The position numbers and the translations under genes were made by a program. The notes under the pieces were generated by a model that was not told the origin of the DNA, did no database searches, and was given only the letters and a program-made list of their open reading frames with translations. From Acidimicrobiia bacterium (lineage in GTDB: Bacteria > Actinomycetota > Acidimicrobiia > IMCC26256 > JAENVU01), in contig DASXYP010000047.1 of the NCBI GenBank assembly GCA_036502405.1, positions 10,432-74,431 of the forward strand: a stretch of DNA of 64,000 nucleotides, read 5' to 3'. How positions within the stretch are numbered: position 1 is the first letter of the stretch; the number at the start of each line of letters is the position of its first letter. Of the stretch, positions 7,098 through 57,174 are shown piece after piece.

Positions 7098-9113
7098 GTG
7101 ACGCAACGCGACCGGCCCTGGGTCATCCGCACGTACTCCGGCCACTCGTCGGCGAAGGCCTCGAACGAGCTCTACCGCGCGAACCTGGCGAAGGGGCAGA
7201 CCGGGCTGTCGGTTGCGTTCGACCTCCCGACCCAGACCGGGTACGACGCCGACCACGTGCTCGCCCGGGGCGAGGTCGGCAAGGTCGGCGTGCCGGTGCC
7301 GCACCTCGGTGAGATGCGGACGTTGTTCGACGGCATGCCGCTCGAGGACATGAACACGTCGATGACGATCAACGCGACCGCGATGTGGCTCCTCGCGCTC
7401 TACATCGCACTCGCCGAGGAGCGCGGCGTCGATCCTCACGTCCTCGCGGGCACGACGCAGAACGACATCGTGAAGGAGTTCCTCTCGCGCGGCACGTTCA
7501 TCTTCGGCCCGGAGCCGAGCCGCCGGCTCACCGTCGACGTCATCACCCACACCGTGAAGCACCTGCCCCGCTGGAACCCGATCAACGTCTGCCCGTACCA
7601 CCTGCAGGAGGCCGGCGCGACTCCGGTGCAGGAGCTCGCGTACGGGCTCGCGACGGCGGTCGGCGTCCTCGACGCGGTACGGGACTCGGGCCAGGTCGGC
7701 CCCGAGGACTTCCCCCAGGTGGTCGGCCGGATCTCGTTCTTCATCGACGCGGGGATCCGCTTCGTCGAGGAGATGTGCAAGATGCGCGCGTTCACCGCGC
7801 TGTGGGACCGCATCTGCCTCGAGCGCTACGGGGTGCAGGACGAGAAGCTCCGCCGCTTCCGCTACGGCGTGCAGGTCAACTCGCTCGGCCTCACCGAGGC
7901 TCAGCCCGAGAACAACGTCCAGCGGATCGTCCTCGAGATGCTCGGGGTGACCCTGTCGCGCGACGCGCGAGCCCGGGCCTTGCAGCTGCCGTGCTGGAAC
8001 GAGGCGCTCGGGCTCCCCCGTTCGTGGGACCAGCAGTGGTCGCTGCGCATGCAGCAGGTGCTCGCGTACGAGACCGACCTGCTCGAGTACGGCGACCTGT
8101 TCGAGGGCTCGAAGGTCGTCGAGGCGAAGGTCGAGGAGCTCTCGACCGCCGCGTGGGAAGAGCTGCAGTGGGTGCTCGACGGTGGCGGCGCGTTCGAGAT
8201 GATCGACGAGATCAAGGGCCGGCTCGTGCAGTCCAACGCGGAGCGGATCCGCCACATCGAGTCGGGCGCGACGACGGTGGTCGGCGTGAACTCCTTCACC
8301 GAGACCGAGGCGTCACCGCTCACCGCCGACCTCGAAGGCGAGTCGCACATCCTCGTGCTCGACCCGGCCGCCGAGGCCGAGCAGATCGCCCGCTTGGAGG
8401 AGTGGCGGCACGAACGTGACGCCGCGGCGGTGGACGTCGCGCTCAAGCGGCTGCGGGCGGCGGCCGCGACCGACGAGAACCTGATGGCGACGACCATCGA
8501 GCTGGCACGGGCCGGCGGCACGGTCGGCGAGTGGGCCGGCGCGCTGCGCGACGTGTTCGGGGAGTACCGCGCCCCGACCGGCGTCGGCGGCATCGCCGCG
8601 GGCGTGGCCGACGACATGCTGGCCGTGCGCACGCAGGTTCAGGCCGAGGCCAAGCAGCTCGGCGGCCCGCCCCGCATCCTCGTCGGCAAGCCCGGGCTCG
8701 ACGGCCACTCCAACGGGGCCGAGCAGATCGCGGTCGCGGCGCGCGACGCGGGCATGGAGGTCGTCTACCAAGGCATCCGCCTTACTCCGCTCCAGATCGC
8801 GACCGCCGCACGCGACGAGGACGTCGACGTCGTCGGCCTCTCGATCCTGTCTGGCTCGCACCTCGAGCTCGTGCCCGAGATCATCCGCCTGCTGCGATCG
8901 ATGGACGTCGACGCGCCGGTCGTGGTCGGCGGGATCATCCCCGAGCCGGACCAGGTCGTCCTGCGCAACGCCGGGGTCGCCGGGATCTACACGCCGAAGG
9001 ACTACCGATTTGCGCAGATCATGCGGGATGTCGCGGCCCTCGGTCTGGAACATCGCCGAAACCGCACAAAGCACTCCACCGCGGCGCGCGGTGAGCCGAT
9101 GGACTCCCCGTGA
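7098..9113 (+). CDS. ecm: Ethylmalonyl-CoA mutase (MeaA/Ecm), B12-dependent
   Basis: RDRPWVIRTYSGHS, KGQTGLSVAFDLPTQTGYD, MNTSMTINAT, C-terminal KPGLDGHSNGAEQIA B12-binding domain; near ccr and epimerase. Confidence 0.9.
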   Translation: MTQRDRPWVIRTYSGHSSAKASNELYRANLAKGQTGLSVAFDLPTQTGYDADHVLARGEVGKVGVPVPHLGEMRTLFDGMPLEDMNTSMTINATAMWLLALYIALAEERGVDPHVLAGTTQNDIVKEFLSRGTFIFGPEPSRRLTVDVITHTVKHLPRWNPINVCPYHLQEAGATPVQELAYGLATAVGVLDAVRDSGQVGPEDFPQVVGRISFFIDAGIRFVEEMCKMRAFTALWDRICLERYGVQDEKLRRFRYGVQVNSLGLTEAQPENNVQRIVLEMLGVTLSRDARARALQLPCWNEALGLPRSWDQQWSLRMQQVLAYETDLLEYGDLFEGSKVVEAKVEELSTAAWEELQWVLDGGGAFEMIDEIKGRLVQSNAERIRHIESGATTVVGVNSFTETEASPLTADLEGESHILVLDPAAEAEQIARLEEWRHERDAAAVDVALKRLRAAAATDENLMATTIELARAGGTVGEWAGALRDVFGEYRAPTGVGGIAAGVADDMLAVRTQVQAEAKQLGGPPRILVGKPGLDGHSNGAEQIAVAARDAGMEVVYQGIRLTPLQIATAARDEDVDVVGLSILSGSHLELVPEIIRLLRSMDVDAPVVVGGIIPEPDQVVLRNAGVAGIYTPKDYRFAQIMRDVAALGLEHRRNRTKHSTAARGEPMDSP

Positions 9114-9886
9114 TGGACCGCCGACTCGCGTTCTCGATCGGTGCCGGGTTCGCCTCGCTGGCGATCGGCATCGCAGTCGGAGTGCTGGGAATCCCCGAGC
9201 TCGCCGTGCTCAGTGGCTTGTTCGGGCTGCTCGCGGCCATCGCCGCGACCGCGCTGGGCGCCCGCACGCGAAGCGCCGAGGAGCAGCTCCACGAGATGAG
9301 CGTCGACCGGGCCCGGCTCCGCCGTGAGCTCGACGCGCTGGCGGCCATCTTCGCCGAGGAGGCGACCCGGCGGAGCTCCGCCGAGGAGTCCGCCGCCGAG
9401 CGCGCCGACTCGGAGCCGTTGGTCGATCCCATCTCGGGTCTGCTCGAGCAGCAGTTCTTCAAGGTCATCGTCCAGCAGCGGGTCGCGGCGGCCCGCCGCC
9501 AGCTCCAGCCGGTGTCCGTCGTCATCTTCGAGCTCGACGGCGTCGGCCGCTCGGACGCCGACACCCAGCACCAGGCGCTCGGCGTCCTCGGTGCGGTCGT
9601 GCGGCGCACGCTGCGCGAGTGCGACGCGGCCTGCCGCATCGGCGACACGATGGCCGCCGCGGTGCTCGAGGACACGGCCGAGGCCGGCGCGGTCTGGGCC
9701 GCCGAGCGCGTCCGCGGCACGTTGCACAGCAGCCCGGTCGGCGACTCCCTCACGATCTCGGCCGGCATCGCCTGCTACCCGAGCCACGCGCTCAACGCGC
9801 CCGAGCTCGTCGACCAGGCCGGCCGCGCCCTCGAGAGCGCCCGCGCCAGAGGCCGCGACCACGTAGAGATCGCCCAACCCGACTGA
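9110..9886 (+). CDS. Membrane-anchored degenerate GGDEF-domain protein
   Basis: Two N-terminal TM helices, coiled segment, VDPISGL, FELDGV, ISAGIACYP; signature motif reads IGDTM; GTGA/ATG overlap with ecm stop. Confidence 0.85.
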   Translation: MMDRRLAFSIGAGFASLAIGIAVGVLGIPELAVLSGLFGLLAAIAATALGARTRSAEEQLHEMSVDRARLRRELDALAAIFAEEATRRSSAEESAAERADSEPLVDPISGLLEQQFFKVIVQQRVAAARRQLQPVSVVIFELDGVGRSDADTQHQALGVLGAVVRRTLRECDAACRIGDTMAAAVLEDTAEAGAVWAAERVRGTLHSSPVGDSLTISAGIACYPSHALNAPELVDQAGRALESARARGRDHVEIAQPD

Positions 9887-9890
9887 CCTT

Positions 9891-10081
9891 CTCTTCAAGA
9901 TCTCTCGAGCGCACCTCCAGACCCGACGTCGCAAAAGGCGCTCGAGCGGCCCTCCCGAAGATCTCTGGAGCGCACCTCCGCACCCGCGTCTCCCACGGCG
10001 CTCCAGCGGCCCTCCCGAAGATCTCTGGAGCGCACCTCCAGACCCGAAGTCGCAAAAGGCGCTCCAGCGGCCCCACTCTTC
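9891..10081. repeat. Three tandem ~60-bp hairpin units plus a partial fourth (REP/BIME-like cluster)
   Basis: Units 9900-9960, 9961-10020, 10021-~10074, each with a 9-bp inverted repeat CTSGAGCGC...GCGCTSSAG around 24-25 nt. Confidence 0.9.
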
Positions 10082-10143
10082 TCCAGAGCGGCGAAGAAGG
10101 CGCGGGAGCACACAAGAGGACGTCAGTCGCGACTCGCAGCCCA

Positions 10144-10239
10144 GGCCTCGTGCGGGGTCGTGGCCACCGAGCGAGTTCTGCGAGCGCCCCTCAGCTCGCA
10201 GACTGTCCGAGCGAATGGCCATGCGCCCCGCACGAGGCC
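10144..10239. repeat. 96-nt nested hairpin, member 1 of a dispersed TGGCCA-bounded element family
   Basis: Outer 14-bp stem 10144-10157/10226-10239, TGGCCA/TGGCCA, inner 9-bp stem 10177-10185/10194-10202; loop sequences shared with 54430-54503. Confidence 0.85.
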
Positions 10240-10264
10240 GTGACCACTTGGGCAGGGACCGAGC

Positions 10265-12073
10265 TCACGCGTACAGAGACGAGATCTCCAGCGCATACTT
10301 CGCCGCAATCCCCCGGCGCTTCAACTTCATCGTCGGCGTCAGCTCCTCGGAGTCCGCGACCCACTCGTCGCAGAGGATCCTCACCTTCTTCACCCGCTCG
10401 GCCTGGTTGAACGACTCCATCGCGGCCGCGACCTCGCGGTCGACCTCGGCGACGACCTCGGGGTGGTCGGCGAGCTCGGCGATGCTGGTGGCGCGGATCC
10501 CGTGGCGGCTCGCCCACCCGGGCGCGACCTCGGGGTCGAGCACGACGAGCGCGGCGATGAACGGGCGGGCCTCGCCGATGACGCACGCCTGCCCGATGAG
10601 CTCCTGGGCCTTGAGCGCGGCCTCGAGGTTCGCGGGCGACACGTTCTTGCCGCCCGCGGTGATGATCAGCTCCTTCTTGCGGTCGACGATGCGCAGGTAG
10701 CCCTCGTCGTCGAACACCCCGATGTCACCCGAGTGCAGCCAGCCGTCGGCGTCGAGCGCGTCGGCGGTCTTCCCGGGGTCGTTCAGGTAGCCGCGGAAGA
10801 CGTTGCCACCGCGCGCGATCACCTCGCCGTCCTCGGCGAGGCGCACCTCGCTGCCGGGGATCGCGGGACCGACGGAGCCGGCCTTGATCCGGAACGGCTC
10901 CCAGGTCATCGGGCCCGACGACTCGCTCATCCCGTAGATCTCGGAGATCGGCACCCCGAGGGCCCGGAAGAAGTCGAAGACCTCGACCGAGATCGGCGCG
11001 GCGCCGCTGATCGCGGCGATGCACTCGTCGAGCCCGACGATCGACCGGACGAGTGCGAGGGTGTCGCGCTCGGCGGCCTCCCACTCGGCCCGGAGGTCGT
11101 CGGGCAGCTCCTCGTCGCGGGCACGGCAGTCCGACGCCTTGAGCCCGACGCCGAGCGCGGCCTCGAGCTGCTCCCGGCGCGCGGCGTCGGCCGCGGCGAT
11201 CGCCATGATCCCCGAGTGCATCTTCTCCCACACCCTCGGGACCGAGAAGAAGATCTCGGGCCGGACCTCGGGCAGGTACTGCGCGATCTGTCCGCCCTCC
11301 GGACACGTCGAGACCTCGTAGCCGAGCGCGACGCCCTGGTAGTGCGACGTCATCCGCTCCGCGATGTGTGCCATCGGGAGGTAGGACACGACGCGCCGCC
11401 CGGCCGTCGCGAGCTCGCCGAGGCAGAGCCGGAGGCTCTCGATCGTCCAGCAGATGTTCTCGTGGTCGAGCAGCACGCCCTTCGGGGGGCCGGTGGTCCC
11501 CGACGTGTAGATGACCGTCGCGATGTCGCTCGGCGCGGCGATCGCCGCGGCCTCGTCGAGGTCGAGCGGGACCGACTCGATCAGGTCACTCCACGCGAGG
11601 ACGCCGGCCGGACGGGCCGCCTTCGCCTCGATGGTGACGACGTGCGCCAGCTGCGGCAGCGCGTCGCGCACCTCGAGGAAGCGGCCGAGGTACCCGTCGT
11701 CCTCCAGGATCGCGACCGTCGCCTCGCAATGGCCCACGAGGTACTGGACCTGCTCGGGCGCCGAGGAGTTGTAGATCGAGATCGGCGTCGCCCCGAGCAG
11801 GAGCACCGCCATGTCGGCCACGTGGAACTCGGGCCGGTTCCGCATCATGAGGACGACCCGGTCGCCGCGGGACACGCCGAGCCCGCGCAGGCTGGCGGCG
11901 AGTCGGGTCGCCCGCTCCGCGTAGTCGGTCCAGGTCCAGTGCCGCCACGAGTCGCCGTCCTTCCAGCGCAGGGCGACCGCGTCGGGCCGGGCGCGGACGG
12001 TGGCGACGAAGCAGGCGGGCACGGTCCGGCCTCGGACCGCCTCCAACAGCTCTCGGTTCGTGATCCGACTCAC
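10265..12073 (-). CDS. Long-chain fatty acid-CoA ligase (AMP-binding family)
   Basis: IYTSGTTGPPKG, YGMSE, GWLHSGDIG, IVDRKKELII motifs; SD AAGGGGG before GTG 12073. Confidence 0.93.
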   Translation of the reverse strand: MSRITNRELLEAVRGRTVPACFVATVRARPDAVALRWKDGDSWRHWTWTDYAERATRLAASLRGLGVSRGDRVVLMMRNRPEFHVADMAVLLLGATPISIYNSSAPEQVQYLVGHCEATVAILEDDGYLGRFLEVRDALPQLAHVVTIEAKAARPAGVLAWSDLIESVPLDLDEAAAIAAPSDIATVIYTSGTTGPPKGVLLDHENICWTIESLRLCLGELATAGRRVVSYLPMAHIAERMTSHYQGVALGYEVSTCPEGGQIAQYLPEVRPEIFFSVPRVWEKMHSGIMAIAAADAARREQLEAALGVGLKASDCRARDEELPDDLRAEWEAAERDTLALVRSIVGLDECIAAISGAAPISVEVFDFFRALGVPISEIYGMSESSGPMTWEPFRIKAGSVGPAIPGSEVRLAEDGEVIARGGNVFRGYLNDPGKTADALDADGWLHSGDIGVFDDEGYLRIVDRKKELIITAGGKNVSPANLEAALKAQELIGQACVIGEARPFIAALVVLDPEVAPGWASRHGIRATSIAELADHPEVVAEVDREVAAAMESFNQAERVKKVRILCDEWVADSEELTPTMKLKRRGIAAKYALEISSLYA

Positions 12074-12268
12074 GAGGCCCCCTTGCCGGTCGATCGGCCA
12101 CAATTCGTAGCGCATCCGACGCGTGGGGGAAACGTCGCCGTCCCCATGCCGTCCCCGCACCGTCCACCGTCTGGCGCCGCCCCCCTTGGGGTCGGAAACC
12201 CGGCATACGCTGCCTGAAACGATCAAACCGGACAAGAAATTCTCGGGCTTCTCCCCAGATGGGGGGTC

Positions 12269-12289
12269 TCGTCCACACCCTTGTCCACA
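12269..12289 (+). promoter_or_regulatory. Pair of DnaA-box-like 9-mers
   Basis: TCGTCCACA (1 mismatch) at 12269-12277 and perfect actinobacterial TTGTCCACA at 12281-12289 in a less GC-rich intergenic stretch. Confidence 0.45.
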
Positions 12290-12380
12290 GCAGGCTCTGG
12301 AAAACCTCGAGGTGGTGGTGCACAATGCCCGCAGCGACGTCCCGAGGAGCCGTTGGGGCCCCCGCCGCAAGGTGAGGTCT

Positions 12381-13562
12381 CTACTCCGACACTCCTCGGG
12401 GCGTCTCGCGTCCGGGCCCGGTTCCGGGCCCGTCACTGCGGTCGGCCCACAGGTCCTCGGCCACGACCTGGGTGTCCGCGCCGAGCGGGCGTCCCGCATG
12501 GCGCACCTGGCCGGGCGTGCGGGACATCCGGGCGAGGAGCCCGGGCATGCGGACCCCGTCGACGTCCACGATCGCGCCCCGGGCGGCGATGTGGGGATCG
12601 GCCAGGAGGTCGGCCATGGAGTAGACGGGCGCGATCGCGGCCTCGGCGGCCTCGAACGCCGCGAGCACGTCTTCCGAGGTGCGGGCGCCGACCCAGTCGG
12701 CGACGATCCGGTCCAGCTCCGCGCGGTGCTCCACCCGACCTTCGAAGCTGACGAAGCGCGGGTCGTCGCCCACCCCGAGCAAGGCCATCACGCGGTGCGC
12801 GACCGACTCGGCGGACGTCGAGATCGCGATCCAACGTCCGTCCGCGCACTGGTACGTGCCGCGCGGGACCGTGTACGGGATCCCGCTGCCGAGCCGCGGC
12901 TGGAGGTAGCCGAGGTGCGCGTGCGCGCTCGGCAGCGCGCCCATCAGCTGCAGCATCGTCTCGAGCAGGTTCACGTCGACGACCTGGCCCTCGCCGGTGC
13001 GGTCGCGGTGGCGCAGCGCGACCATGACCGCGAACGCGCCGGCGAGCGCGGTCACCTCGTCGGTCAGCGCGATCGGCGGGAGCAGCGGCGCGCCGTCCGG
13101 CTCGCCGTTGATCGCGGCGAACCCGCTCATCGCCTCGGCCATCGTGGCGAACCCGGGCCGGCCCGAGTACGGGCCCTCCTGGCCGAACCCCGTGATCCGG
13201 AGGACGACGAGGCCCGGATTCCGCGCCAGCAGGTCCTCCGGCGCCAACCCCAGACGCTCGAGCGTGCCGGGCCGGAAGTTCTCGACCAGCACGTCCGCGG
13301 TGGCGAGCAGGCGCCGCATCGTGTCGAGCCCCGCGTCGGTCTTGAGGTCGAGCACCGCGGCCCGCTTCCCCCGCCCGAGCAGCTTCCACATGAACGACTC
13401 GCCGTCGCGGGGGTCGATCCAGCCCATGCGGCGCGTGCCGTCGCCCTCGGGGCTCTCGACCTTGACCACGTCGGCGCCGAAGTCCGCCAGGTAGCGGGCC
13501 ACCCCGGGCCCCGCCAACACGGTCGCCATGTCCACGACCCGGAGCCCCGCAAGTGCCTGCAC
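12381..13562 (-). CDS. CaiB/BaiF (family III) CoA-transferase
   Basis: LAGLRVVDMATVLAGP, GADVVKVESP, ENFRPG, ITGFGQEGPY motifs; leaderless GTG 7 nt after TATCCT. Confidence 0.94.
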   Translation of the reverse strand: MQALAGLRVVDMATVLAGPGVARYLADFGADVVKVESPEGDGTRRMGWIDPRDGESFMWKLLGRGKRAAVLDLKTDAGLDTMRRLLATADVLVENFRPGTLERLGLAPEDLLARNPGLVVLRITGFGQEGPYSGRPGFATMAEAMSGFAAINGEPDGAPLLPPIALTDEVTALAGAFAVMVALRHRDRTGEGQVVDVNLLETMLQLMGALPSAHAHLGYLQPRLGSGIPYTVPRGTYQCADGRWIAISTSAESVAHRVMALLGVGDDPRFVSFEGRVEHRAELDRIVADWVGARTSEDVLAAFEAAEAAIAPVYSMADLLADPHIAARGAIVDVDGVRMPGLLARMSRTPGQVRHAGRPLGADTQVVAEDLWADRSDGPGTGPGRETPRGVSE

Positions 13563-15604: not shown

Positions 15605-15612
15605 AGCACGCC

Positions 15613-15654
15613 TTGGCGTCGCGTACCCCCCTCTACGGTGGGTAAGCGACGCCA
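15613..15654. terminator. Long hairpin between convergent genes (bidirectional terminator candidate)
   Basis: TTGGCGTCGC / GCGACGCCAA perfect 10-bp stem plus inner TACCC/GGGTA. Confidence 0.65.
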
Positions 15655-15673
15655 AAGCGCCGGGGTGGGCCGG

Positions 15674-23964: not shown

Positions 23965-23990
23965 CCTGCGGGTTCGCGACCCTTCGCTGC

Positions 23991-24018
23991 ACGGGAGCGG
24001 CCTGCGGGCCGCTCCCGT
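23991..24018. terminator. Perfect 12-bp hairpin between convergent genes
   Basis: ACGGGAGCGGCC-TGCG-GGCCGCTCCCGT. Confidence 0.7.
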
Positions 24019-30753: not shown

Positions 30754-31031
30754 GCGGACCGTGCACCCGCTGTCGACCCGACACCGAAGGGCGCGCCGCT
30801 CGCTGCCGGCTCAGGCCAGGCGACCCTGCGGCACACGGGAGGGCCCGCTGAGAGCTGCTTCCTTCCGGACCTGACTCGTTTCACGAGATCCCGTTGCGCA
30901 GGACCCGACCATCTACACCACTGGCGAGTCGCCTTCCCAACGGCGGCTCGGGCCTCGAACGGGGATTCGGCCCCCCATGACGTGGATTTGGGGTACAGGG
31001 CACCACGGGCTCCCCGCTTAGCACGGTCCGC
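30754..31031 (-). ncRNA. ffs: Signal recognition particle RNA, large (Alu-domain) type
   Basis: Reverse strand has GCCGTGCTAAGCGGGGAG-like 5' Alu start, GGTCCTGCGCAA, TCAGGTCCGGAAGGAAGCAGC helix 8, and terminal pairing 30755-30764/31021-31030; TACCCT -10 at 31038-31043. Confidence 0.95.
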
Positions 31032-36161: not shown

Positions 36162-36249
36162 GGAGGGGTGCGAGAGCGGCCGAATCGGATGGTCTCGAAA
36201 ACCATTGTGGCGCAAGTCACCGTGGGTTCAAATCCCACCCCCTCCGCCA
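36162..36249 (+). tRNA. tRNA-Ser(CGA)
   Basis: Acceptor GGAGGGG/CCCCTCC, anticodon arm ATGGT-CTCGAAA-ACCAT, long variable arm, TTCAAAT, encoded CCA. Confidence 0.97.
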
Positions 36250-53839: not shown

Positions 53840-53895
53840 AAGTGACAAAAGGGTACGCGAGCGGTCGAGCCCCTTCGCCTACGTTCTCCGTCGAC

Positions 53896-54384
53896 GTGGA
53901 CTTCACCCTGACCCAGGATGTTCCGGCGACTGTCGATGCCGTGGATGCGGCGCTGGTGGACCCTGCCTTCCTGGTGCGCATGAGCGAGCTGCCGAAGCTC
54001 GGGTCGGCCGAGGTGGTCGCCGACGAGCGCGATGGTGACGTCGTCGCGCTCCAGGTGCGCTACCTCTTCCAGGCCGAGCTCTCGGCGGCGGTCACGCGCG
54101 TCGTGGACCCGAGCAAGCTCACCTGGGTCGAGGACTCGACCTGCGACCTCGCCGCGCACCATACGACGTGCGTCATCCGGCCCGACAACTACGCGAACCT
54201 GCTCGAGGGCAGCTACGAGGCGACGATCGTGGCCGCGGCGTCGGGGTGCACGCGGACGGTCACCGGTCGGATCAAGGTGCACGTGCCGTTGCTCGGGGGC
54301 AAGGTTGAGAAGGCGATCGTCGGCGGGCTCGCCGAGAACGCTTCGGCCCAGGTGGCTCTCTTGGCGGACTTCATCAGCTCGTAG
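53896..54384 (+). CDS. DUF2505-like (START-fold) protein
   Basis: KVHVPLLGGKVEKAIV C-terminal motif; start uncertain. Confidence 0.75.
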   Translation: MDFTLTQDVPATVDAVDAALVDPAFLVRMSELPKLGSAEVVADERDGDVVALQVRYLFQAELSAAVTRVVDPSKLTWVEDSTCDLAAHHTTCVIRPDNYANLLEGSYEATIVAAASGCTRTVTGRIKVHVPLLGGKVEKAIVGGLAENASAQVALLADFISS

Positions 54385-54421
54385 CTGCCGCGCTTTCCGT
54401 CGGATCGTTGGCCGGTCGGGG

Positions 54422-54510
54422 CGGGCATGTGGCCATTCGCTCAGACAGTGGTCTCTGCGCTCGCTGGCGCTCGCTCCGCGACCACAACTCGCTCGGTGGC
54501 CACACGCCCG
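54422..54510. repeat. TGGCCA-bounded hairpin element, member 2
   Basis: TGGCCATTCGCTCAGACAGT (54430-54449) and AACTCGCTCGGTGGCCAC (54486-54503) match the reverse complement of the 10144-10239 element; stems differ. Confidence 0.85.
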
Positions 54511-54580
54511 TCCCTTCCATGCCCGCGGTCGTTGATACGTCGGGCGCGGTTGTGTCTTGTGTCGGCACGGTGATCGATCG

Positions 54581-56821
54581 TCAGGGGTGGTGGGGGGTGA
54601 AGCGGCGGAGTCTGAGGGAGTTGGTGACGACGAAGACGCTGGAGAAGCCCATGGCGGCGGCGGCGATGATCGGGTTGAGGAGGCCGAGCGCGGCGAGGGG
54701 GATCGCCGCGACGTTGTAGGCGAAGGCCCAGAACAGGTTGCCGCGGATCGTCGTCAACGTCCGGCGGGAGAGCGCGATGGCGTCCGCCGCGGCGCGCAGG
54801 TCGCCCGACACGAGCGTGAGGTCGCTGGCCTCGATCGCGACGTCGGTCCCGGTCCCGATCGCGATGCCGAGATCGGACTGGGCGAGCGCGGGCGCGTCGT
54901 TCACGCCGTCGCCGACCACTGCGACGTCGTGCCCTGCGGCCTGGAGCTCGCGAACCACGTCGACCTTCTCGCCCGGCAGGACGTCCGCGACCACGCGGTC
55001 GACGCCGACCGCGATCGCCACGGCCTCGGCGGTCGCCCGGCGGTCGCCGGTGACCATCACCGTCTCGATCCCGAGCCCGTGCAGGGCCGCGACCGCGTCC
55101 CGCGACGTCGGCTTGATGGTGTCCGCGACCACGAACGCGGCACGGACCTGTCCGGCCCACCCGGCGAAGACCGTGGTGCGTCCGACCCGGGCCGCGGCGT
55201 CGGCCACCGCGCGCAGTGCGTCGGGGACCGGTTCGTCGGCCGGGGCCGCCCAGTCGAGCCGGCCCACCCGGACCTCGACGCCGTCGACCACCGCGCCGAC
55301 ACCCCGGCCCGGCTCGTTCGTGAAGTGCGCCGGTGGCGTCGGTGCCACGCCCCGGGTCCGGAGTCCGTCGGCGACCGCACGCGCGATCGGGTGCTCGGAG
55401 GCGTCCTCGGCGGACGCGGCGAGAACGAGCGTGCGTGCTTCGTCCTCACCCGGCGCGACGGCGACTTCCACCAGCTCCATCCGGCCCGAGGTGATGGTCC
55501 CCGTCTTGTCGAGCACCGCGGTGTCGACCCGACGCGTCGCCTCCAGCACTTCGCCACCCTTGATGACGATGCCGAGCTGGGCGCCGCGCCCCGTGCCGAC
55601 CATGATCGCGGTCGGCGTCGCCAGCCCGAGCGCGCACGGGCAGGCGATGATCAGCACCGCGACCGCGGCCGTGAACGCTTCGTTCGCCGAGTGCCCGGTC
55701 AGGAGCCAGATCGCGAGCGTGCCGAGCGCGATCGCGATCACGACCGGCACGAAGATGCTCGAGATCCGGTCGGCGAGTCGTTGCACCGGCGCCTTCGAGC
55801 CCTGGGCCTCGGCGACCAGACGGCCGATCTGCGCGAGAGCGGTCTCACTGCCGACGTGCGTCGCGCGCACGACCAGCCGACCGGAGGTGTTGATCGTCGC
55901 GCCGAAGACGGTGTCGCCCACCCCGACGTCGACCGGCACCGGTTCACCGGTGAGCATCGAGACGTCGACCGCCGACGCGCCGTCGACGACATTCCCATCC
56001 GTCGCGATCTTCTCGCCCGGCCGCACGACGAACCGGTCGCCGACCGCGAGCTGCTCGATCGGGACCTCCTCGCCGGTCTCGAGCCGGGCCGACTTCACGC
56101 CGAGCTCGAGGAGCGCGTGCATCGCGTCGCCCGAGCGGCGTCGCGCCCGGGCCTCGAAGTACTTCCCGAGCAGCAGCAGGGTGATGATCGCGGCCGCGGT
56201 CTCGAAGTAGACGTGCGCATCGTTGTCACCACTCATGGCCGACGACGCCGCATCCAGGAACACGAGGGCGACCACGGACCAGAGCCACGCCGCGGTGGTG
56301 CCGAGCGACACGAGCGTGTCCATCGTGACCGCGCCGTGGCGCAGGTTCACGAGCGTCGCCCGGTGGAACTGCCACCCGGCCCAGAAGATGACGGGGGTGG
56401 AGAGCACGAGGGCGATCCACTGCCAGCCGTCGACCATCAACGCCGGCACCATCGAGACGAGGAGCACCGGCACGGTGAGGACCGCCGCGACGATCAGCCG
56501 CGCCAGGACGGTCCGCTCGTCCCCGTGGTCGTGCCCGTGCGCACTGCCGGGCTCGGGCACCGAGTAGCCGAGGTCCGCGACCTTCGCCTTGAAGTGGTCG
56601 GGTCCCGTGACCGATTCGTCGTAGAGGACGGTCGCGGTCTCCGTGGCCAGGTTGACCCGGCATTCGCGAACACCGTCCAGCCCTCCGAGTGCGTGCTCGA
56701 CCCGGCCCACGCAGGATGCGCAGGTCATGCCGGCCACCGGGAGATCGATGCGACGTGTCTCCTCGGGCGCGGGCGCCTGCCGGTCGGTCGATTCGGCGCC
56801 TGCGTGCGTTCGGGTCGTCAT
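54581..56821 (-). CDS. copA: Cu(I)-translocating P1B-type ATPase
   Basis: GMTCASC HMA domain, [29 protein letters not shown] motifs. Confidence 0.95.
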
Positions 56822-56892: not shown

Positions 56893-57174
56893 GTGCGCGG
56901 CTACTCGATGCACAAGGACGACTACCGACGGCGCCTGGCCCGGATCGAAGGTCAGGTGCGCGGGTTGGCCCGCATGATCGACGAGGACCAGTACTGCATC
57001 GACGTGCTGACCCAGATCGCGTCGGTGACGCGGGCGCTGCAGGGGGTCGGGCTCGGGCTGCTCGACGAGCACCTCGGCCACTGCGTGCGGGAGGCGACCG
57101 AGCGCGACCCGGACGAGGGCGACGCGAAGATCACCGAGGCGATGGCCGCGGTCGAGCGCCTGCTCCGAGCCTGA
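56893..57174 (+). CDS. csoR: Copper-sensing repressor CsoR
   Basis: [25 protein letters not shown] (C-H-C ligands); divergent from copA. Confidence 0.94.

Follow-up and report, generated by a model that had tools for sequence, protein, structure and literature searches.

Two long hairpins, near 10.2 kb and near 54.4 kb of a 64-kb stretch of Acidimicrobiia DNA (the window; 71% GC, of even composition), carry almost the same inner sequence inside stems that differ from one copy to the other. The question is what such an element is, and what has kept it at its two places. A sequence-only reading had described the pair as a dispersed family with fixed loops and stems conserved in structure alone, either a non-coding RNA motif or an element mobilised by an HUH enzyme.

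Direct reading bore out the two copies, with their near-identical loops and their differing yet pairing stems. As shown in Table 1, each is a composite hairpin in which an outer helix (P1), an inner helix (P2), an internal loop and an apical stem (P3) follow one another. Read on the minus strand, copy 1 runs GGCCTCGTGCGGGG-CGCA-TGGCCA-TTCGCTCGGACAG-TCTGCGAGC-tgaggggc-GCTCGCAGA-ACTCGCTCGG-TGGCCA-CGA-CCCCGCACGAGGCC. On the plus strand, copy 2 runs GGGGCGGGCATG-TGGCCA-TTCGCTCAGACAG-TGGTC-(26 nt)-GACCA-CA-ACTCGCTCGG-TGGCCA-CACGCCCGTCCC. The part common to both is exact, TGGCCA-TTCGCTC[G/A]GACAG...ACTCGCTCGG-TGGCCA, while the outer and apical stems differ. The 19-mer TGGCCATTCGCTCRGACAG occurred twice with 0 mismatches, 0.07 occurrences being expected at ≤3 mismatches, and the 16-mer ACTCGCTCGGTGGCCA also occurred twice with 0 mismatches. 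The 14-bp outer stem of copy 1 was perfect as first described; that of copy 2, at first counted as 13 of 14, proved to have 12 pairs (10 Watson-Crick, 1 G-T and 1 A-C) stacked on the 6-bp TGGCCA helix. The 26 apical nucleotides of copy 2 contain a 10-nt tandem duplication, GCGCTCGCT, which adds one extra CGCTC(G/A) motif.

Table 1. Positions of the parts of the two hairpins and of neighbouring features in the window.
Feature	Position	Strand	Basis
Copy 1, entire composite hairpin P1-J-P2-loop-P3-loop-P2-J-P1	10144..10239	-	Fold; covariance model, 101 bits
Copy 1, P1 5' arm GGCCTCGTGCGGGG	10226..10239	-	14 perfect pairs with 10144-10157
Copy 1, junction CGCA (10222-10225) and P2 5' arm TGGCCA (10216-10221)	10216..10225	-	Alignment
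Copy 1, 5' loop strand TTCGCTCGGACAG, fixed sequence	10203..10215	-	Motif scan, alignment, four-fold comparison
Copy 1, apical stem-loop P3 TCTGCGAGC / tgaggggc / GCTCGCAGA	10177..10202	-	Fold; invariant GCGCTC in 3' half
Copy 1, GCGCTC of apical stem	10177-10185	minus reading	Alignment
Copy 1, 3' loop strand ACTCGCTCGG	10167..10176	-	Invariant, 8/8 distinct sequences
Copy 1, P2 3' arm TGGCCA (10161-10166) and junction CGA (10158-10160)	10158..10166	-	Alignment
Copy 1, P1 3' arm CCCCGCACGAGGCC	10144..10157	-	Fold and alignment
Copy 1, tentative outermost helix P0, 3' arm GGCTGC	10136..10141	-	Partner GTGGTC 10242-10247
Copy 2, entire composite hairpin	54418..54514	+	Fold; covariance model, 86 bits
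Copy 2, P1 5' arm GGGGCGGGCATG and P2 5' arm TGGCCA	54418..54435	+	Compensatory changes in L006, L008
Copy 2, 5' loop strand TTCGCTCAGACAG	54436..54448	+	Motif scan and alignment
Copy 2, apical region, P3 TGGTC/GACCA around 26 nt, then CA	54449..54486	+	Fold and alignment
Copy 2, GCGCTC of apical stem	54470-54478		Alignment
Copy 2, 3' loop strand ACTCGCTCGG	54487..54496	+	Motif scan and alignment
Copy 2, P2 3' arm TGGCCA and P1 3' arm CACGCCCGTCCC	54497..54514	+	Alignment
GGDEF protein gene, beside copy 1	9110-9886	+	Gene calls (Pfam, GC3)
Array of 60-nt units, beside copy 1	9897-10073		2.9 tandem copies
Acyl-CoA synthetase gene, beside copy 1	10265-12499	-	Gene calls (Pfam, GC3)
Plain hairpin, other convergent pair	15609-15659		
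Plain hairpin, other convergent pair	~23989-24018		
Bacterial large SRP RNA	30759-31026	-	Rfam, 178 bits
tRNA	36162-36246	+	Rfam
DUF2505 gene, beside copy 2	53842-54384	+	Gene calls (Pfam, GC3)
Copper P-type ATPase gene (copA), beside copy 2	54581-56821	-	Gene calls (Pfam, GC3)
93-aa ORF, divergently upstream of copA	56893-57174	+	Synteny with L006

Copy 1 folded at -75.3 kcal/mol (z = -6.2 against shuffled controls) and copy 2 at -60.7 (z = -3.9) and -65.9 kcal/mol (z = -4.9) on its two strands. A long hairpin formed on all 4 strands of the two copies, with z from -3.9 to -6.6 against shuffles. Around copy 1 a further helix, P0, is tentative; it has three G-U pairs on the minus-strand RNA and was conserved without covariation in RNAalifold. 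The short flanks of copy 1, GTGGTCAC and TGGGCTsCGAGTC, were conserved as far as the relative L012 (described below). An alternative fold of copy 1, in which an arm of P3 pairs with the loop (GCUCG/CGAGC), was rejected, being absent from copy 2.

Both copies lie between convergent genes, as had been proposed; the placement rests on Pfam- and GC3-based gene calls. Copy 1 starts 25 nt past the stop codon of the acyl-CoA synthetase gene, with which it shares a strand, and faces the gene of a GGDEF protein. Beside it lies a tandem array whose 60-nt unit is itself a hairpin, CT[C/G]GAGCGC - 25 nt - GCGCTC[G/C]AG, with a compensatory C-G to G-C change between unit 1 and units 2-3. The array was absent from the orthologous spacer of L001, L002 and L012, and no further copy of it was found in 226 kb of related loci. 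In relatives free of the array, copy 1 ends about 60-70 nt before the opposite stop codon. Copy 2 starts 34 nt past the DUF2505 stop and ends 66 nt short of the copA stop on the opposite strand. The 93-aa ORF divergently upstream of copA is syntenic to the gene of a CsoR-type repressor (PF02583) in L006, so that a csoR-copA copper-efflux unit has copy 2 at its 3' end. One contig of soil-metagenome run X7 fuses position 54508 to 54586, a 77-nt spacer deletion that runs from the copy 2 hairpin to the copA stop in some strain. Paralogy of the two ~745-aa neighbours was considered and rejected, acyl-CoA synthetase and P-type ATPase showing no similarity. The ~50 ORFs of the window, scanned against Pfam, are ordinary housekeeping genes, and no transposase, RAYT, integrase or HUH domain was found among them.

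Gene ends of this kind also occur with simpler hairpins. In L011, a relative that lacks the element, the spacer equivalent to that of copy 1 holds a plain bidirectional terminator-type hairpin, TTTCGGCGTGA...TCACGCCGAAA. At two other convergent pairs in the window there are plain GC-rich hairpins without a T-tract, one with a 23-nt arm at 87% complementarity and the other with a 12-bp perfect stem. A hairpin without a U-tract thus looks like the local norm for gene ends, and the plain hairpins in equivalent spacers indicate that such sites need a hairpin. Since a plain hairpin is enough elsewhere, termination alone leaves the fixed loop unexplained.

Comparison with orthologues separated the parts held by sequence from those held by pairing. 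The nearest public genome is an uncultured soil Acidimicrobiia MAG with ~92% identity over the copy 1 neighbourhood. Orthologues of copy 1 were taken from this MAG (L001), from a JGI soil contig (L002) and from three NCBI MAGs (L012-L014), whose synthetase is 84% identical to that of the window. MAGs that carry the element are CAWFYL01 / MFD05442.bin.1.317, GCA_054327175.1, GCA_054327035.1 and GCA_054326995.1. Orthologues of copy 2 were L003-L005, from the same species, and L006 and L008, in which the flanking protein is 91% and 89% identical, respectively. In two other contigs, L007 (ENA ERZ25039533 contig_20645) and L015 (ERZ25039495 contig_39592), many genes that are intact in the window (among them those of the P-type ATPase, the acyl-CoA synthetase and the methylmalonyl-CoA mutase) were called as 2-3 fragments, which looks like assembly frameshift errors.

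All three helices showed compensatory double changes. P1 of copy 1 is GGCCTCGTGCGGGG/CCCCGCACGAGGCC in the window and GGGGCACGAACGGGG/CCCCGTTCGTGCCCC in L012, four double substitutions that leave the pairing unbroken, and other compensatory pairs separate the window from L001. P1 of copy 2 showed a compensatory G-C to A-T change in L006. P2 changed from TGGCCA/TGGCCA in the window to TCTCCG/CGGAGA in L012 and GTCCA/TGGAC in L008. Because P2 turns over with its pairing kept, TGGCCA is a helix and not a recognition word, which corrects the sequence-only reading. P3 occurred in four different forms. In RNAalifold, two-sided changes were found at 11 of the 40 pairs in the copy 1 set and at 6 of the 32 in the copy 2 set; in a model-based alignment of the 8 distinct sequences, P2 changed on both sides in 4/6 pairs. 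None of 500 whole-structure shuffles attained the observed covariation score, and when the stem partners were slid against each other the paired cells fell from 95% to 25-62%.

The loops behaved differently. Identity at four-fold degenerate sites was 0.59 between the window and L012 and 0.62 between the window and L008, which is close to saturation with GC3 near 0.9. Across the same distances, 21 (L012) and 22 (L008) of the 23 loop bases were identical to the window. The 3' loop strand ACTCGCTCGG did not change in any of the 8 distinct sequences, and the junction CGCA/CGA of copy 1 was unchanged in L012. The sole recurrent loop change was G to A in TCGCTCGG, seen in three lineages; the last base of GACAG was also variable. 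The GCGCTC in the 3' half of the apical stem was invariant in 8/8 distinct sequences as well, though its pairing partner changes. The contrast between sequence-fixed loops and structure-only stems, drawn at first from two copies, is therefore repeated among the orthologues. The element is a hairpin held at its position beside genes, inherited vertically, and under selection both on pairing and on loop sequence. Read from sequence, its compensating stems and fixed inner loop mark a functional, undescribed RNA or single-stranded DNA element.

The internal loop between P2 and P3 carries the octamer UCGCUCGG on both strands, with GACAG added on one side and AC on the other. The two facing octamers (TCGCTCGG) are able to form pairs at 6 of their 8 positions, on either side of a CU/UC mismatch; in RNAfold the own-strand duplex reads U-G, C-G, G-C, C/U, U/C, C-G, G-C, G-U. 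With an identical octamer on its facing strands, the internal loop is nearly two-fold symmetric and partly paired, so that of the first description of the loops as near-identical and unpaired only the near-identity held. As judged by hand, two tandem G-A pairs flanking a GC step could arise in the loop of the opposite strand, GAGCGA/GAGCGA. Kink-turn and loop-E folds of that strand were also tried by hand and rejected, since the extra A adjoins P2 and AGUA/GAA is out of register. Along the DNA the octamers are 37 to 49 nt apart, and with a spacing so variable only the folded form brings the two together. Each element thus has three same-strand CGCTC(G/A) motifs, namely the two loop octamers and the apical GCGCTC.

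Either strand could be the acting one. The loop variant with G changed to A (TCGCTCAG) remains paired only when read on the opposite strand. On that strand alone, the A-C and C-A mismatches of copy 2, like this loop change, become G-U; P0 works on the element's own strand only. Counts of G-U against A-C gave no clear strand preference in either copy set, and in both sets the stem pairs were almost all Watson-Crick, with few wobbles. Such a near-absence of wobbles is expected if the transcripts of both strands must fold, and it also fits DNA; the element could be read as RNA or as single-stranded DNA.

The known family is small. A covariance model of P2 and the loop, run over the 64-kb window with filters off, returned only copies 1 and 2, and the next-best match, at 17.7 bits, lay on the other strand of copy 2. 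Neither the covariance model with default filters nor a fuzzy regular expression found a copy beyond the known orthologues in 226 kb of related loci. Pattern scans of public genome contigs and of metagenome contigs gave one match each, both of them orthologues of copy 1. These scans undercount the family because the patterns demanded TGGCCA, a covarying stem, so that copies of the L006, L008 and L012 types would have been missed. The element had no match in plasmids, in phages or in viral contigs, the last searched with two patterns.

Soil-metagenome contigs (runs X1, X2 and X3) matching 10130-10255 and 54400-54530 showed the core joined to foreign flanks. One further locus reads ...GCGTGCGTCG, core, CGACGTATGCC... 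and occurs in two variants, with P2 as CGTCGA/TCGACG or, by compensatory change, as CGCCCA/TGGGCG; a second reads ...GGGAGGGGCCGCCCGACC, core, CAGCGGGCGGCCCTCCC.... Judged from 30-nt flanks, these indicate at least two more loci in the same soils. The term dispersed family is therefore weakly true: the soil contigs hint at two or more additional loci, whereas the 64 kb hold two copies and the 226 kb none elsewhere. The distribution known so far is one narrow clade of soil Acidimicrobiia, with two to four loci.

Copies 1 and 2 resemble each other beyond the loops. P3 of copy 2 in L006 matches that of copy 1 at 17 of 26 positions, and the inner-P1 sequence CGGGGCG...CCCCG is common to both copies, which points to a common origin by duplication of a unit at least ~62-90 nt long. 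Relatives that lack the element have a 21-58-nt spacer or overlapping gene ends in its place, and by pairwise distances one gain or one loss per locus accounts for presence and absence among the relatives. On this comparative evidence both copies appear to be old and vertically inherited at fixed loci.

No known family accounted for the element, as had been anticipated. At the gathering score, Rfam 15 matched only the SRP RNA and one tRNA in the whole window, and neither copy. At E ≤ 10 the two copies gave only spurious matches, to eukaryotic or viral microRNA-precursor models and one snoRNA, with 8-20 bits against cut-offs of 40-106. A full-text search of the literature for the loop sequences returned nothing relevant. 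A terminator consensus scan of both strands over 9850-10320 and 54340-54640 found 0 terminator-like sites and no T/U-tract after the hairpin, and a scan for promoters of the sigma-70-type consensus found no promoter-like site near either copy. Inspection revealed no target-site duplication or flanking direct repeat at either copy. Contig depth over both copies was zero in three soil/rhizosphere metatranscriptomes, in which the organism is too rare for depth to count.

The closest likeness is to TRIT, the Tuberculosis Rho-independent terminator motif of Mycobacterium (Gardner et al. 2011, PMC3152330). [quoted passage not shown] The TRIT consensus is given in PMC3152330 only as a figure, and the two were set apart by description. 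Like TRIT, the present element is an actinobacterial, lineage-restricted palindromic hairpin of conserved sequence at gene ends. Unlike TRIT, it is known from 2-4 loci, starts 25-34 nt past the stop codon, has variable stems around a fixed internal loop and belongs to Acidimicrobiia.

Other systems share single traits. REP, BIME and REPIN elements are palindromes outside genes, in many cases between convergent ones; they can stabilise the upstream mRNA, and proteins recognise them when folded. REPs measure 20-40 nt, keep their stem sequence and a 5' tetranucleotide of the GTAG type, and occur in tens to hundreds of copies in genomes with a RAYT gene. The element resembles them as a folded extragenic palindrome between convergent genes, but its P1 is unrelated between the copies, its P2 and P3 turn over among orthologues and are different again at the soil loci, the foot of the hairpin has no GTAG-type motif, its density is low and the window ORFs scanned include no RAYT. 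It differs from a MITE in that the outer arms are not alike in the two copies and flanking direct repeats are absent. The recurrent intergenic RNase III signals of phage T7 are hairpins in which a conserved internal loop between two stems directs recognition and which set mRNA 3' ends. A conserved-sequence internal loop between an upper and a lower stem is also found here; however, the T7 signals are phage-encoded, of another host group and another sequence, and RNase III would be pure conjecture for the present element. Integron attC sites are recognised in the form of a folded single strand that has extrahelical or unpaired bases; they depend on R''/R' core sites (RYYYAAC / GTTRRRY) together with an integron integrase and arrays of cassettes. 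The element, like attC, keeps its structure while its sequence varies; unlike attC, it has no R''/R' core sites, integrase or cassette array, and its neighbours are housekeeping genes. With canonical intrinsic terminators it shares a GC-rich hairpin just 3' of a stop codon, where one palindrome can serve both directions; it differs in having no U-tract on either strand and in its ~30 pairs with a fixed loop, which go beyond the needs of termination. A palindromic structured repeat at gene ends is thus of a known kind. What is new is the combination of variable stems around a fixed, two-fold symmetric loop with low copy number.

Intrinsic termination by the RNA polymerase of mycobacteria is reported to depend on a U-tract (PMC3993855). 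The missing U-tract therefore makes simple intrinsic termination doubtful, and factor-assisted termination or a role in processing or stabilisation is more plausible than plain intrinsic termination. We consider the best explanation to be a hairpin that the host maintains at the 3' ends of convergent transcripts, with a loop on which a protein docks, an analogue of the mycobacterial TRIT, and give this reading a probability of roughly 0.45. On that reading one or both convergent mRNAs would carry the transcribed element at their 3' end, and the GC-rich hairpin would set or protect that end, by termination, by processing or by blocking 3' exonucleases. It would also insulate one convergent unit from the other. 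The fixed symmetric loop may be the docking site of a protein, for example a dimeric double-stranded-RNA-binding factor or a nuclease. Thus the active form would be RNA, its action would be on 3' ends, and its loop would be read by a protein. For so small a set of sequences the signs of selection are unusually clean, but the function is inferred. A more specific form, which we regard as possible but doubtful, is that the element, as structured RNA or as folded single-stranded DNA, represents an undescribed motif for protein recognition, and that a dedicated dimeric factor reads its two-fold symmetric UCGCUCGG loop to define or process mRNA 3' ends in Acidimicrobiia.

Four other explanations, given here in falling order of credibility, have to be set against the 3'-end hairpin. 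The element may be a non-autonomous mobile element, REP/REPIN- or MITE-like and possibly moved by an HUH enzyme, with the folded strand as substrate and the loop as transposase site. This would account for the same core at several loci with different flanks (copies 1 and 2 and two or more soil loci), for a duplicated unit that reaches beyond the loops, and for relatives whose spacers lack the element. HUH mobilisation nevertheless found no backing: the ~50 window ORFs scanned encode no transposase, RAYT or integrase domain, target-site duplications are missing, the terminal repeats are not conserved between the copies, two copies in 64 kb with none elsewhere in 226 kb is a low density, and plasmids, phages and viral contigs gave no matches. 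Moreover, the same loci have been kept past synonymous saturation under purifying and compensatory selection. We consider this reading unlikely, and such an element would now be at most domesticated. Slightly less credible is an independently transcribed small non-coding RNA with two or more paralogous copies, the helix being its body and the loop its functional or protein-binding site. Conserved loops within covarying stems are typical of structured non-coding RNAs, and the flanks of copy 1 conserved to L012 would fit a transcript of its own. The start of each copy, only 25-34 nt past a stop codon, however leaves no room for a promoter of its own on that strand, the sigma-70-type consensus scan found none nearby, Rfam holds no relative, and RNA reads were lacking in the three metatranscriptomes, where the rarity of the organism keeps this from counting.

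We consider it improbable that the element acts as DNA, as a cruciform or a fold of the lagging-strand template on which a DNA-binding protein (a recombinase, a nucleoid protein or a replication or repair factor) reads the repeated CGCTCG. The wobble pairs without strand bias and the nearly all Watson-Crick stems would suit such a site, as would three same-strand CGCTC(G/A) motifs per element, including the invariant apical GCGCTC, and octamers that folding alone brings together over their variable spacing. No precedent matched, however, no associated gene was found, and restriction to the 3' ends of genes is more naturally a property of transcripts. Least credible, and very improbable, is the explanation that these are ordinary terminator hairpins whose core is shared through past duplication or gene conversion, the loop sequence having no function. 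Few loci are known, CGCTCG-like words are abundant in high-GC genomes, and concerted evolution could hold the cores alike. But gene conversion would homogenise P2 and P3 too, and these differ; the loops are 21-22/23 identical in separate lineages at both loci despite four-fold identity of ~60% and turnover of the adjacent stems; and loop conservation with independent stem turnover is already seen in 5 lineages.

The practical importance of the element is modest, its known distribution being one narrow clade and a handful of loci. Canonical U-tract terminators are few in high-GC Actinobacteria, and the way in which these bacteria set their mRNA 3' ends is under debate (PMC3152330, PMC3993855). 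In an uncultured class, the element is a concrete candidate for a 3'-end signal that a factor assists, and may serve as a small model for the recognition of an internal loop by a protein. If it is instead a domesticated palindromic repeat, it would show such repeats coming under host selection. If its loop is indeed read by a dimeric factor, it would represent a new type of termination or processing signal for U-tract-poor Actinobacteria.
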